Source: Escherichia coli
GTDB lineage: Bacteria > Pseudomonadota > Gammaproteobacteria > Enterobacterales > Enterobacteriaceae
NCBI RefSeq assembly: GCF_017348835.2
Contig: NZ_CP071375.1
Direction: 5' to 3' (one strand)
DNA length: 64,000 nucleotides
Shown here in pieces: positions 47,501-53,500 of the stretch (position 1 is the first letter of the stretch; every line of letters begins with the position of its first letter). Made by a program: the position numbers.

Positions 47501-50500
47501 CAAAACGGCGGTCACGTCTATTTTGCAAAAACCAAAGAAGACGCTACCCGCTACATTTTACAGGTTGCCCAACGCAAAAATGCCCGGAAGGTGGTGAAAT
47601 CTAAATCGATGGTGACCGAAGAGATTGGTGTCAATCATGTGTTGCAGGATGCTGGCATTCAGGTGATTGAAACCGATCTGGGTGAATATATTCTCCAGCT
47701 GGATCAAGATCCGCCATCTCATGTTGTGGTCCCGGCAATTCATAAAGATCGCCATCAGATCCGTCGAGTGCTACACGAACGTCTGGGCTATGAGGGGCCG
47801 GAAACGCCTGAAGCGATGACCTTATTCATCCGGCAAAAAATCCGCGAAGATTTCCTCAGTGCTGAAATAGGTATTACCGGCTGTAATTTCGCGGTGGCAG
47901 AGACAGGTTCGGTATGCCTGGTGACCAATGAAGCTAATGCGCGAATGTGTACCACGCTGCCTAAAACGCATATTGCAGTGATGGGAATGGAGCGTATTGC
48001 CCCCACGTTTGCCGAGGTAGATGTATTGATCACCATGCTGGCGCGCAGTGCCGTTGGTGCACGTTTGACAGGATACAACACCTGGCTGACAGGACCGCGC
48101 GAAGCGGGGCACGTTGATGGTCCTGAAGAGTTTCATCTGGTTATTGTCGATAACGGGCGTTCTGAGGTGCTGGCCTCTGAATTTCGGGATGTGCTGCGCT
48201 GTATTCGCTGCGGGGCTTGTATGAATACTTGTCCGGCATATCGCCATATTGGCGGTCATGGATATGGCTCTATTTATCCAGGGCCAATTGGTGCGGTGAT
48301 TTCTCCGCTACTTGGCGGCTATAAAGATTTTAAAGATTTACCTTACGCCTGCTCTTTATGCACTGCTTGTGACAGCGTGTGCCCGGTGCGTATTCCGCTG
48401 TCAAAACTGATTTTGCGTCATCGTCGGGTGATGGCTGAAAAAGGGATCACCGCAAAAGCAGAGCAACGGGCGATAAAAATGTTCGCTTATGCCAATAGTC
48501 ATCCAGGATTGTGGAAAGTCGGGATGATGGCCGGTGCTCATGCGGCAAGCTGGTTTATCAATGGCGGCAAAACACCACTCAAATTTGGCGCGATTAGCGA
48601 CTGGATGGAAGCACGCGATCTTCCTGAAGCTGACGGAGAGAGTTTCCGTAGTTGGTTTAAGAAACATCAGGCGCAGGAGAAAAAGAATGGATAATCGGAG
48701 CGAATTTTTGAATAACGTTGCTCAGGCACTGGGTCGCCCGTTGCGACTTGAACCGCAAGCAGAAGATGCGCCGCTTAACAACTATGCTAACGAGCGGCTT
48801 ACCGCACTTAACCAACAGCAGCGCTGTGACGCGTTTATCCAGTTTGCCAGCGATGTTATGTTGACGCGCTGTGAACTGACCAGCGAGGCGAAGGCGGCAG
48901 AAGCTGCAATACGACTGTGTAAAGAGCTGGGAGATCAGTCGGTCGTGATTAGCGGTGACACGAGGCTGGAGGAATTAGGGATTAGCGAACGTTTGCAGCA
49001 GGAATGCAATGCCGTTGTTTGGGATCCGGCGAAAGGTGCCGAGAATATCTCGCAGGCAGAGCAGGCTAAAGTGGGTGTCGTGTATGCTGAATATGGTTTA
49101 ACCGAATCGGGAGGCGTGGTTCTTTTTTCCGCCGCCGAGCGCGGGCGTTCGTTGAGCCTGCTCCCGGAATCTTCTCTTTTTATCCTGCGTAAAAGCACAA
49201 TCCTGCCGCGTGTAGCGCAACTCGCAGAAAAATTGCATCAGAAAGCGCAGGCCGGTGAACGAATGCCGTCATGTATTAACATCATCAGTGGTCCCAGCTC
49301 AACGGCGGACATTGAGCTTATCAAAGTCGTCGGGGTTCATGGTCCGGTGAAAGCGGTGTATCTGATTATTGAGGATTGCTGAGAGAGGTATGAAGTCTGG
49401 ACATAAACCTGAAGGCGGCATACGAGGTTTGAATAGCGTTAAGGGCAACCTGACTTAACCCCGTTCCGTCATGGTTATGCTCCTCTTCTGTAAATATCCT
49501 GGCATTACTAATGCCAGGATATTTACAGTGAAAAAGACAGGCATCCATTCCTGAAAACGGGTTCCCTTCCCGGTCATTGTCACTTCAGCTTTATACAGGC
49601 ACTCTCTATCAGAATGCTGTTTATTACTGCCCAGAGTTTTGTTGGTATTCATCTACCATTTTTTTGACAAGACAAAACATTACAGAAATTACAATGCTTA
49701 GAAAAAATCCCAGAGCCAGGCAAATGGCAGCAGGGTATTTATTTTTTATTTCTGGTGAGCTTATTGAACCGCCCCGGGTTTCCTGGAGAGTGTTTTATCT
49801 GTGAACTCAGGCTGCCAGATCATTATTTCCGATGGAAGCATAATAAGCTTTTTCTGCTTCTGCCGGAGGAATATGGCCCAGCCTTTCCAGCAATCGTCGA
49901 TTGTTATACCAGTCCACCCACGTTAGTGTGGCCAGTTCCACTTCTGTCCGGTTTTTCCAGCTCTTACGGTGTATTACCTCCGCTTTGTAAAGACCATTGA
50001 TGCTCTCAGCCATCGCGTTGTCATACGAGTCGCCAGTACTCCCTGTTGATGCCAGTAATCCGGCTTCCTTAAGCCGCTGCGTGTAGGCCAGCGATACATA
50101 CTGAGAACCTTTATCACTGTGATGGATTGTGCCGGACGGCCGACGGGCCCACAACGCCTGCTCCAGTGCATCCAGCACGAATGTTGTTTCCATGGATGAT
50201 GAGACCTGCCATCCCACGATGTATCCGGCGAACACATCAATGATGAACGCCACATAAACGAAGCCCTGCCATGTGCTTACCCAGGTAAAATCAGCCACCC
50301 ACAACTGGTCTGGACGTTCTGCCACGAACTGACGGTTTACGCGGTCGCATGCGGCAACGGCTTTCCGGCTGACGGTAGTGCGGACCTTTTTACCCCGGAG
50401 AACACCGGCAAGTCCCATAACTGCCATGAGACGTGCCACAGTGCATCTGGCCACTCTGATACCTTCCCGTAACAACTGACGCCAGACTTTACGCACACCG

Positions 50501-53500
50501 TATACCTGGTGATTTTCATCGTATACGCGCTGTATCTCTTTCTTCAGCCAGTCATCGTGCTGCGCACGGGCACTGCGTTTATCCGGATGATGTCGCTGTT
50601 GCTGACAATGGTAATACGTTGACGGGGCAATATGCAGTTCGCTGCATACCGGTCCGACCCCGTACTGCTCACGCAGCTTATCCAGCAGTGGCATTATTTT
50701 TTCCAGAGGCGGTCGAACTCCGCCTTCGCAAAATAAGCGGAAGCCTGGCGAAGGATATCGTTACTGCGGCGCAGTTCACGATTTTCACGTTCCAGCTCTT
50801 TCAGACGCTGACGTTCAGCGGTGGTGAGTCCACCATCACCACTCCCGGTATCCCGCTCATGCTGGCGAACCCAGACACGCAGAGTCTCCGGCGTACAGCC
50901 AATCTTTGGGGCAATGGAACAAATTGCCGCCCACTGTGAGTCATATTCATCCTGACTTTCCAGAACCATACGAATCGCCCGCTGACGGACTTCGGGGGAA
51001 AAACGAGTATTTTTAGTCATCCTGTTTACCTCTTTCTCAGGGAGTTTAGTCTCCAGGATTTCCGGGGCGGTTCATATAGTTACACAGCCATCACCGTTCG
51101 GATACAATGACCAGTTCCTGGTCAGGTATATCATTTTTGTATAAAGCTCACTGTTAATTGCTGAAGGCGTTTGTATCTCATCGAGAACTTGCCTGCCATT
51201 ATGGTATTCTGACGCATACCATTTGATAATAGACGCCTGCACGTGAGATATTTCCGCTTCAGCAGTTGGTAAATCTCTCTTATCTCCTGACCATTCCAGC
51301 TTTATTTCTCTGTTCTTGACATCTGGGCTGGTGTGAAAAAATGTAGTAATTCGCTGAATAACATCTTCAGTCATTGTGGTCTGACAGGCAAAGTTATTAT
51401 TGCTATCACAGTTAACAAGTATGCCTGGCGTTGTCTGGTTTATTTTTAGGCTGTAACTCACTTTTATATTATCTTTATTGATATACAGAAACAACAGCAC
51501 CATTGCCATACAGATAGCTATAATAAAAAGGATAACACGAATCTTTTTCTTCAGATAAAATAAAATCTCAATCAGATCGATATCCTGTTTGATTTGTTCA
51601 TTCATAATATATCCAGAAAATGAAATCTGTCGCAGATAAGGTTGTATTAATAGTCTGTATCAGGAATGTTCGGGTTAAATATCAGAAAAAAAACAGCATC
51701 ATGAATACTGGATGTTTATAGCCTGCAGGCAGTATAATTTAGCGTTACATTATTTCCCGTGGCCCTTCCAGAGATATACCTGTCGCACTACTTTTTTCAT
51801 TTTTCGCAACAAAGTTACCGCCATTAACAACAACATCGCCAGTTGAATCAATGACCATTGCAATCCGGACATAGGTGCCTTCACCTTGAGCTGTGATGGT
51901 GGAGCCTGTAGCTTTAATCACAACATTTTTGTCATCGCTAACTTTTACACCGTCAACGAAGTTTTGGTCTACCGTTGATTCGGCGGTAATATCATGACCG
52001 CCAAAAGTAACATTAAGGTCTTTATCTGCCGCATTAATTGTGACGGCTGTAATCTGTTGGTCTGCTGTATTGCTAATAACAACATCTTGATTCAGAGTCG
52101 TGTTATTTTTATCCAACGTAACCGACGTAGTTGATACCGCGTTATCAGCAGCGAATGCTGATGCAGAAAGAGCCATAACAATAGCTGTCGCTAATGCGCT
52201 GCGGTAAAATGCCTTACTGTTTTTCATGAAGAAATTCTCCATTCTGGTAACTAATTTCAATTTCCCACTTATTTATATTTATGCAGAGATAAAGCCTGCG
52301 TCCCTGCATTTACCACCACGGAATACCTGTTGGTATTTCCGTTTTCACGCAATGTCATGGCATTCGTTTTTTCCAATGCATTTCCATCACCGTGAAATTT
52401 ATTGCTGCTCAGCAGCAGGGCTTCCCGCAATGACATGCTGTCCGGTATTCCCCAACGCTTTTTTAGCGATTGCTCGGCAAGCCATATCTGTCTTATCCCC
52501 GTTTTGAGAAACTGCGCACTGTATTCCCAGCTGTGTCCGGCAAGAAGCAACGACAACACCTTCTTTTGCTTTTCCGGGAAGCGTTCTGACATGACGATTG
52601 TCTTTGTGCGGTTATTCACCTCATTCATAAAGACAGAGTAACTGTCCATAACTGGCAAATTTTCTGCATGTTTCAGTCCTGAAAACCCACCAGAGGCATT
52701 TGCAACACTGATAGCACGCTCTACTGACATTCCTGGTTTCAGTAACCTCAGGTTTTTGAGAACGCCAGAAATACTCACATCCGGTGGCAGAAAAAGGGCG
52801 CGACGCACAACACCACCACGAATGAGTGATCCCGATAAAATCGGAACCACATTTCAGCGCATTCGGCAGGTCGCCCTGCCGATATCACGACACTCTGTGG
52901 CCTGTGCCGCAATTTATTGCGTAACTCCTCTTCTGTTCTGATGCAGGTAATATTGCAGACAGAACCGGTTGATAGAGCTGCGAACTGTGCAGGTACAATT
53001 CCTGAGGGACAGAAAAGAACGAAACGCATCCTTCCCTCACAGATGTCAATACGCCAGCACGCTGTACAGGCTGTACAGCGTGCCTCCCAATCCTGCAGCC
53101 CAGAGCAGTAGAAATATTTTGGCTCCTACACTGTAGCGAGTCCGTACGCGCCGCAGTGGGTGGTAGTAACAACGCTGCTGTGTCATAACACTCCTGGTCT
53201 TTTTTTAGACATATGTTTTCTTTGTCCGGAAAGCACTTTTCCGGATATGGCGTCAGAATTTATTGATTTACCAACAATAACTTTCTCTGGATAAAGAATT
53301 CCGGACACCATGTTCTGCACATACTGAGTGAGTCGATGAGCGGAATGTTGTCCGACATATCTTGCATGTAGCCGTATATTCCGTTTGACTCTGCTGTCAC
53401 CGCATCCCGTATAGAGCAGCCTGAAATCGCTTAGTGTTCCCAGTCCAAGTTTCCTTAATGCCTGTGTGGCAATCGCATGCAGAGTCTTTGAACTGCGTTG

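Follow-up and report, generated by a model that had tools for sequence, protein, structure and literature searches.

The ykgH locus and its inserted element

In the window (the 64,000-nt stretch of Escherichia coli contig NZ_CP071375.1 analyzed here), ykgH is present as two pieces on the minus strand, separated by an IS3-family insertion sequence, copy 2. A second copy of the element, copy 1, lies elsewhere in the window. The features discussed below are as follows:

13309..14618, plus strand: IS copy 1, opposite in orientation to copy 2, separated from it by 35,146 bp, and different at one base
49624..49761, minus strand: ykgH 3′ remnant, codons 178–222 (45 codons) and TAA, encoding a predicted second transmembrane (TM) helix and a short C-terminal tail
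49762..49764: left copy of the target site duplication, TAT, corresponding to codon 177 (ATA/Ile on the minus strand)
49765..51074, minus strand: IS copy 2, 1310 bp, IS3 family, assigned to the IS629/IS1203 group, with the IRR end at 49765 and the IRL end at 51074
49765..49791: IRR, matching IRL at 23 of 27 positions in an end-to-end alignment, with a 5′-TG terminus
49807..50694, minus strand: orfB, 295 aa from its ATG, integrase-core (rve/DDE) catalytic part (Pfam rve, E = 1.5e-26)
50008: the sole difference between the copies, A in copy 2; copy 1 has G (plus strand) at the equivalent position, 14375
50623..50739, minus strand: ALIL pseudoknot (Rfam RF01497, 120.3 bits against a gathering score of 50, E = 2.7e-32, full model length)
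50694..51020, minus strand: orfA, 108 aa, helix-turn-helix N-terminal part of the transposase (Pfam HTH_Tnp_1, E = 2.9e-12)
50697..50702, minus strand: A6 run at the end of orfA (TGG AAA AAA TAA), candidate −1 slippery site
51048..51074: IRL, whose final TCA is TGA on the minus strand, the stop of the truncated YkgH
51075..51077: right copy of the target site duplication, TAT, abutting copy 2
51075..51605, minus strand: ykgH 5′ part, codons 1–177, encoding a predicted N-terminal TM helix and a presumed periplasmic domain
Junction 30-mers of ykgH::IS: GGTGAGCTTAT+TGAACCGCCCCGGGTTTCC and GGGGCGGTTCA+TATAGTTACACAGCC

In the window sequence the element starts with TGAACCGCCCCGG at 49765 and runs to CCGGGGCGGTTCA at 51074, and six copies of it with unrelated flanks give identical boundaries. 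Its ends (TGAACC...GGTTCA) are imperfect repeats of the 5′-TG...CA-3′ type, and its length fits the IS3 family (∼1.2–1.55 kb). Longer repeat arms of 1315 nt, with five matching bases beyond the IS, were rejected as an artifact of tolerant extension: The bases concerned (CTGTC vs. CTATA) agree at only three of five positions.

The first-pass annotation had described copy 2 as a simple insertion directly flanked at both ends by TAT, and the motif is indeed found at 49762..49764 and 51075..51077. Taken alone, this match is only suggestive of insertion; the chance of a 3-bp flank match is ∼0.018, given the local base composition. The insertion reading is decided by the intact ykgH alleles, since these read GAGCTTAT|AGTTACAC, with one TAT precisely where the two halves meet. 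Duplications of 3 bp are likewise seen around other copies of this element type (GTA in L002, CAC in L003, and AAG in L006), and the copy in prfH has an ATC duplication once an inversion in strain PE164 is undone.

The split gene and its restored frame

The membrane-protein ORF to the right of the element was said to stop inside the IS terminal repeat. It does so after 177 codons, at a TGA built from the last three bases of the IS (51072..51074). The C-terminal coding remainder that had been expected just left of the element was also found there (45 codons and a stop, 49624..49761). Removal in silico of the IS and one TAT gives a continuous 222-aa ORF that is identical at 220 of 222 residues to the PGAP “protein YkgH” WP_001624663.1, an intact allele from strain 14EC033, as a simple insertion splitting ykgH predicts; the frame is lost when the excision is 1, 2, 4, or 5 nt longer or shorter than the IS alone. 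The join that had been proposed earlier (51075 onward to the sequence ending at 49764) likewise gives a continuous frame, but it keeps both TATs and encodes Ile177 twice, for a total of 223 aa; a real empty site has a single TAT. The ykgG–ykgH arrangement at the restored locus is the same as in the annotated intact genome. PGAP calls the 5′ part a 177-aa “hypothetical protein” (WP_096220381.1) in both PE164 and F2_81, and the 3′ remnant in PE164 a pseudogene fragment “missing N-terminus.” The gene is AT-rich (36.6% GC).

Hydropathy of YkgH places helices at residues ∼22–42 and ∼188–210. Insertion at codon 177 is predicted to remove the second, C-terminal TM helix and to leave the N-terminal one, and this loss of one of two predicted helices suggests that ykgH is most likely inactivated. 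Because no gene follows ykgH in its direction of transcription and ykgG is convergent with it, no polar effect downstream is expected. A promoter and terminator scan around copy 2 returned weak consensus matches only, with nothing suggesting IS-driven expression of the neighbors. As to function, YkgH has no NCBIfam match and no meaningful PDB match; its Pfam matches are sub-threshold only (the Wzz N-terminal region, scoring 20.1 bits where 25.5 is required, and DUF6520), and the literature on it describes only a predicted inner-membrane protein.

Transposase genes and frameshift signals

The ATG of orfB overlaps the stop of orfA, with orfA in frame 0 and orfB in frame −1, which is the layout of the IS3 family. 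The ALIL pseudoknot is an RNA element that stimulates frameshifting in IS3-family elements. Copy 2 has the signals of a programmed −1 frameshift, both the A6 run and the RF01497 structure, from which we infer slippage and an OrfAB fusion of 404 aa. The modeled fusion scores 362.1 bits against the equivalog profile NF033516 transpos_IS3 (cut-off 160), covering profile positions 1–369 of 369, and in PE164 PGAP gives a joined 1214-nt CDS labeled “programmed frameshift.” With terminal repeats, orfA and orfB, the A6 run, the ALIL pseudoknot, and the putative 404-aa fusion all in place, copy 2 looks intact at the level of its sequence.

Relationship to IS629 and IS1203

ISfinder conventionally groups as isoforms elements with a DNA identity of about 90% or higher. 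We compared copy 2 with a copy in O157:H7 whose transposase is named “IS3-like element IS1203 family” by PGAP; the name that PGAP gives to the copy 2 variant is the generic “IS3 family” only. The two align ungapped over 1310 bp with 95.95% identity, differing at 53 bases, a comparison between genome copies rather than with ISfinder references. IS629 subtypes diverge by 4–5% (PMC3271280), and the identity of 95.95% falls inside this inter-subtype spread. Copy 2 is 99.6–99.8% identical to copies from O103:H2, O121, and bovine strains.

Copy 2 shares with IS629/IS1203/IS3411 (of E. coli O157:H7, O111, and O26 and of Shigella) the length of 1310 bp, the TGAACCGCCCCGG...CCGGGGCGGTTCA termini, orfA and orfB with a −1 frameshift signal, the ALIL pseudoknot, and the 3-bp duplication. 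IS1203 and IS3411 are isoforms of IS629, which generates 3–4-bp duplications and has no sequence-specific target (PMC3271280). The authors of the F2_18C genome name these copies IS1203 or IS1203-like (PMC6985150). These likenesses point to copy 2 being an IS629/IS1203-type member of the IS3 family.

Copy 1 and rearrangements in the region

The two copies had been said to differ by about one nucleotide, and the difference is exactly one in 1310 (50008 vs. 14375). It is synonymous (GCT vs. GCG, Ala229 of OrfB). The three PE164 copies examined (ykgH, paoC-side, and tfa-side) are identical to copy 2, so that, relative to them, the differing base is private to copy 1 of the window; the same base is also found in divergent variants. 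A private difference in copy 1 does not date the ykgH insertion. Nor does it identify a donor copy, which we ruled out because the three PE164 copies match copy 2 and the base of copy 1 is shared with divergent variants.

Copy 1 is flanked by GTC and TCT, has no target duplication, and lies between prophage tail-fiber genes and a paoC without its 3′ end: It is at a deletion junction. In PE164, there is a ∼17.5-kb inversion between copy 1 and the copy in prfH. An inversion via copy 1 and a third copy thus already separates PE164 from the window; from copy 1 to the end of the window, copy 2 included, the two are collinear. The genome carries ∼25–34 copies of this IS, and we attribute such local structural differences among very close relatives (the PE164 inversion and the copy 1 deletion junction) to the high copy number of a near-uniform IS.

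Since rearrangements of this kind do occur in the lineage, as the unmatched flanks of copy 1 and the PE164 inversion illustrate, copy 2 might itself mark the end of an inversion or deletion that arose by homologous recombination between IS copies, its TAT match being one of the ∼1.8% that arise by chance. This is extremely improbable, given that thousands of genomes carry the two flanks of copy 2 directly joined, base for base, and that the joined flanks reconstitute an intact ykgH; an inversion between copies 1 and 2 is further opposed by the collinearity with PE164 across both. We likewise give almost no credence to a 37.8-kb composite transposon (13309..51074) that would have moved the pao-ecp-rcl-ykgEFG block between two inverted arms. 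Two near-identical inverted copies do flank 35,146 bp, but the outer flanks differ (copy 1 has GTC on its left, copy 2 TAT on its right), copy 2 has a TAT/TAT duplication of its own, and the genes in between belong to the E. coli core and adjoin ykgH in IS-free strains, with ykgG–ykgH adjacency conserved.

Empty and filled sites across E. coli

Comparison with strains lacking the insertion, which the first-pass annotation had suggested as a check, agrees with its reading: The empty site is uninterrupted and in one piece in ∼4969 out of 5426 complete E. coli genomes; against intact ykgH in thousands of these, the reconstructed empty site gives one full-length alignment. The closest intact alleles in this collection are 99.1% identical, and there is no near-isogenic empty-site strain among them. 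Just two of the 5426 genomes have the filled site, both from pig isolates: PE164 (China) and F2_81/F2_18C (ST302, Australia). Their ykgH::IS junctions are identical base for base, and the genomes were assembled independently. The ykgH copy of the IS in PE164 is identical to copy 2; that in F2_81 differs, at a site other than the one distinguishing copies 1 and 2. The presence of the same insertion in pig isolates from China and Australia implies that it predates the divergence of these two strains from different continents. The “recent transposition” proposed earlier is therefore recent in a relative sense only: The copies are near-identical, but the insertion predates the PE164/F2_81 split, and the base difference does not date it.

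These junctions also bear on whether the insertion could be an assembly artifact, a misplaced repeat of the kind that can mislead assemblers in a genome with ∼25–34 IS copies. That is barely credible for ykgH, where the same junctions appear in two complete genomes sequenced independently in different laboratories and on different continents, and where the clean 3-bp duplication inside a restorable ORF is not what misassembly is expected to produce.

We put the probability at roughly 97% that copy 2 arose by simple transposition of an intact IS629/IS1203-type element into ykgH, a core gene, at codon 177. By analogy with the IS3 family, the OrfAB transposase would be made by ribosomes that slip by −1 at the A6 run, with the ALIL pseudoknot as stimulator; a circular copy of the element would then be integrated at a target cleaved with 3-bp staggered ends, whose repair would leave the TAT duplication. 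For IS629 and its relatives, copy-out-paste-in transposition with a circular double-stranded intermediate is described (10.1101/2023.06.07.543989). The YkgH product would end after residue 177 at the IS-supplied TGA, with zero IS-encoded residues added.

Other insertions in ykgH

In UID2309220026 (L002) and PSS-11 (L003), ykgH is also disrupted by a 1310-bp element in the same orientation, with duplications of its own (GTA and CAC, respectively). The breaks in these genomes lie close to codons 50 and 151, as judged from PGAP fragments, in contrast to codon 177 here, and the IS variant involved differs from copy 2 at 54 bases. These insertions are separate events in unrelated human isolates. 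We find ∼37,942 IS629-type places in 5290 genomes, for which a uniform model gives ∼5 expected in a 669-bp gene. The ykgH insertions counted are in four genomes and represent three independent events (the complex locus H20 was left out of inspection). With three events against ∼5 expected there is no enrichment, and we reject ykgH as an insertion hot spot.

The O157:H7 catalog of Rump et al. (2011; PMC3271280) contains the same class of event, simple insertion into a backbone gene with a 3–4-bp duplication, and the IS1203 disruptions described for F2_18C (ST302) in PMC6985150 belong to this class as well. There are zero occurrences of ykgH in the text of PMC3271280, and the gene is not among the disrupted ORFs named for F2_18C in the passage of PMC6985150 examined. 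The disruption of ykgH thus appears to be annotated in genomes, yet not discussed.

Implications

The ykgH::IS insertion is an ordinary, well-understood, and already known kind of event. A more far-reaching view would make it a stable marker of a global pig-associated clone (ST302-type atypical EPEC or hybrid pathotype), in which loss of YkgH and decay of the adjacent hyxB/upaB adhesin cluster were selected in that niche and not merely tolerated; we consider this a long shot. A related and similarly remote possibility is that the 35-kb pao-ecp-rcl-ykgEFG block is invertible via the two inverted near-identical copies. The finding matters little beyond annotation, where what RefSeq lists as a “hypothetical protein” plus a nameless pseudogene fragment is one IS-disrupted ykgH, and PCR or IS typing of the pig-associated lineage could use the insertion as a marker.

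Boundaries and coding content of the insertion

Direct reading of the window from 49500 to 51400 places the left end of copy 2, the IS element inside ykgH, at 49765 (TGAACCGCCCCGG) and its right end at 51074 (CCGGGGCGGTTCA). The element is 1310 bp long, and its termini are imperfect inverted repeats (23 of 27 positions match). TAT directly flanks both ends (49762..49764 and 51075..51077), as the first-pass annotation had stated; by itself this is only suggestive, the probability of a 3-bp flank match by chance being ~0.018 at the local base composition. The membrane-protein ORF said to stop inside the terminal repeat does so: 177 codons on the minus strand (51075..51605) enter copy 2, and the stop, TGA, is the last three IS bases (51072..51074). 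The coding and frameshift signals of copy 2 are intact.

Coding features of copy 2
50694..51020, minus strand: orfA, 108 aa, transposase helix-turn-helix domain
49807..50694, minus strand: orfB, rve/integrase catalytic core
50623..50739, minus strand: ALIL pseudoknot (Rfam RF01497), full length, 120 bits, E = 2.7e-32, spanning the slippery run

orfA ends in TGG AAA AAA TAA, and the orfB ATG overlaps its stop in the -1 frame. A one-base backward slip on the A6 run yields a modelled fusion of 404 aa, which matches the full profile of NCBIfam NF033516 ("IS3 family transposase") with 362 bits (cut-off 160) and agrees in length with the 1214-nt "programmed frameshift" CDS annotated by PGAP in the pig isolate PE164.

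Copy 2 aligns without gaps over 1310 bp, at 95.95% identity, to a copy from O157:H7 with a transposase that is named "IS3-like element IS1203 family" by PGAP; against copies from O103:H2, O121, and bovine strains the identity is 99.6–99.8%. IS1203 and IS3411 have been treated as isoforms of IS629, whose subtypes lie 4–5% apart, which makes duplications of 3–4 bp and whose target has no sequence specificity (Rump et al., PMC3271280). The authors of the F2_18C genome, another pig isolate, call these copies IS1203 or IS1203-like (PMC6985150). From this naming, and from an identity comparable to the IS629 subtype spread, we file copy 2 under the IS629/IS1203 group of the IS3 family, an assignment to the group and not to an exact ISfinder isoform.

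The empty site

Removal in silico of copy 2 together with one TAT leaves an uninterrupted ORF of 222 aa. The literal join of the flanks, as first proposed, also restores a continuous ykgH frame, although with both TATs kept it gives 223 aa and a doubled Ile177; excision of the IS plus or minus 1, 2, 4, or 5 nt gives ORFs of only 176–185 aa. At least 80% of the reconstructed empty site (1123 bp) is found in one place in 4,969 of 5,426 complete E. coli genomes, and in many genomes it aligns, over its full length and without a break, to an intact annotated ykgH. The closest intact allele, in strain 14EC033 ("protein YkgH", WP_001624663.1, 222 aa), is identical to the restored protein at 220 of 222 residues and reads GAGCTTAT followed by AGTTACAC at the join.

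Comparison with strains lacking the insertion, which the first-pass annotation had also suggested, thus finds one TAT at the join, which shows that the TAT pair is a genuine 3-bp target-site duplication. Since the empty site is unbroken in intact genomes, the flanks were contiguous before the insertion. Copy 2 as the endpoint of a rearrangement is excluded by this contiguity and by the collinearity of the window with PE164 from copy 1, the second IS copy, to the window end. With the ORF restored and intact alleles in one piece, the earlier reading of a simple insertion splitting ykgH holds: Copy 2 is a textbook IS3-family insertion, already in public genomes and annotated there.

Distribution and age

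Only two of the 5,426 complete genomes carry precisely this filled site, with a single alignment piece covering the two junctions at 100% identity. One is PE164, isolated in Nanjing from a piglet with diarrhoea (PMC12233904); the other is F2_81 (CP043542), an ST302 atypical EPEC from the rectal swab of an Australian pig, named F2_18C in PMC6985150. An assembly artefact is excluded by junctions that are identical in two independent complete assemblies. In both PE164 and F2_81, PGAP annotates the 5′ part of ykgH as "hypothetical protein" and the 3′ part as an unnamed pseudogene fragment, neither labelled ykgH. Copy 2 in the window matches the ykgH copy of PE164 at every base and differs by 1 nt from that of F2_81. 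Because isolates from two continents share the insertion, it is older than their split; the transposition called recent is so only on an evolutionary scale, and it predates the divergence of PE164 and F2_81.

The second copy and the PE164 inversion

Copy 1 lies in the opposite orientation at 13309..14618, 35,146 bp from copy 2. The two were expected to be about 1 nt apart, and a single base differs in 1310 (window 50008 versus 14375), a synonymous change (GCT versus GCG) at Ala229 of OrfB. Since all three PE164 copies examined (ykgH, paoC-side, and tfa-side) have the copy-2 base, the difference is private to the window's copy 1.

Copy 1 is flanked by GTC and TCT, with no target duplication (window 13304..14625). 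It links prophage tail-fibre and tail-fibre-assembly genes (10600..13001) with an incomplete paoC; paoD and the prophage right end are absent at the junction.

14579..16420, minus strand: paoC, 3′ end absent, 613 aa

With its unmatched flanks and with prophage joined to paoC, copy 1 marks a junction left by IS-associated deletion or recombination rather than a simple insertion. That copies 1 and 2 are the arms of a composite transposon is excluded by their unequal outer flanks (GTC versus TAT) and by copy 2 having its own duplication.

Among the 5,426 genomes, the tfa-IS junction is found elsewhere only in PE164. There a block of ~17.5 kb (RefSeq NZ_CP114128.1 3934964..3952175, against window 1..13308) is inverted relative to the window; it holds prfH′, pepD, gpt, frsA, crl, phoE, proBA, thrW, and the prophage to tfa, and it is bounded by copy 1 and by a further copy of the IS that lies in prfH. 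Reversing the inversion in silico gives ATC-IS-ATC in prfH, and the window has the K-12 gene order. The window order is therefore ancestral, and PE164 is the product of a derived, IS-mediated inversion.

The prophage at tRNA-Thr (thrW), 4215..13001, is a remnant, with an integrase and early genes (yfdT/R/Q/P-like), then a tail-tip gene truncated at the N-terminal end, lom, and genes for the tail fibre. The early genes directly abut the truncated tail-tip gene, so most of the phage has been deleted.

Surroundings of ykgH

The window and PE164 differ by ~1 mismatch per 8–22 kb. PE164 has an extra 768-bp IS1B, absent from the window, at ~41641..41649, where the alignments overlap by 9 bp, as would be expected of an IS1 target duplication. 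The window thus derives from a very close relative, or another version, of PE164 rather than from that assembly itself. Genes annotated as pseudogenes in PE164 within the window's span include fdeC (internal stop) and ykgL (frameshift). The hyx/UpaB island adjoining ykgH (51745..53600, minus strand) is decayed: ~170 codons are left of the hyxB/upaB autotransporter adhesin gene (51745..52260), and the PE164 annotation records a frameshift in hyxA and another in the island integrase, listed as a pseudogene. The hyxR gene looks intact. The gap between ykgG and ykgH, which converge, contains an inverted repeat of 19 bp with perfectly matching arms separated by 1 nt (TGTAAATATCCTGGCATTA / TAATGCCAGGATATTTACA, 49489..49527). 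It may stop transcription in both directions, but it lacks a T-run, and a terminator scan made no call there.

Consequences for ykgH and the lineage

From established knowledge of the IS3 family and IS629 (10.1101/2023.06.07.543989), we infer that OrfAB would be made by a -1 frameshift, the IS copied out into a circle, and the circle pasted into the target with a cut stagger of 3 bp, repair of which would leave the TAT repeat.

YkgH ends at residue 177, and the IS contributes no residues to it. Hydropathy places helices at about residues 22–42 and 188–210, so the truncated protein would be without its second membrane anchor. The literature goes no further on YkgH than calling it a predicted inner-membrane protein, and it has no match in NCBIfam or PDB, so we infer, rather than observe, that ykgH is inactivated. 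A polar effect is not expected, since ykgH is convergent with ykgG and has nothing downstream in its own direction.

Residues 8–50 of the restored YkgH give a sub-threshold Pfam match to the Wzz chain-length-determinant N-terminal region (20.1 bits, cut-off 25.5). Together with a topology in which a large central domain lies between a helix at either end, this is an unverified hint of a small polysaccharide-co-polymerase-like protein.

Separate 1310-bp IS629-type insertions lie at other ykgH sites in two unrelated human isolates from Thailand and Ecuador, strains UID2309220026 (L002, 2380..3689) and PSS-11 (L003, 2076..3385), with 3-bp duplications GTA and CAC and the orientation seen in the window; in O157:H7 strain 2571, an internal stop makes ykgH a pseudogene. 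With ~37,942 IS629-type places in 5,290 genomes and a ykgH of 669 bp, a uniform model predicts ~5 hits in the gene. Against this there is no enrichment that would make ykgH an insertion hot spot, and its repeated inactivation is at about the chance rate.

The IS matches ~32–34 places in PE164 and 26 in F2_81; PMC6985150 counts 23 IS1203-type copies in F2_18C. The lineage carries an expanded, nearly uniform IS population.
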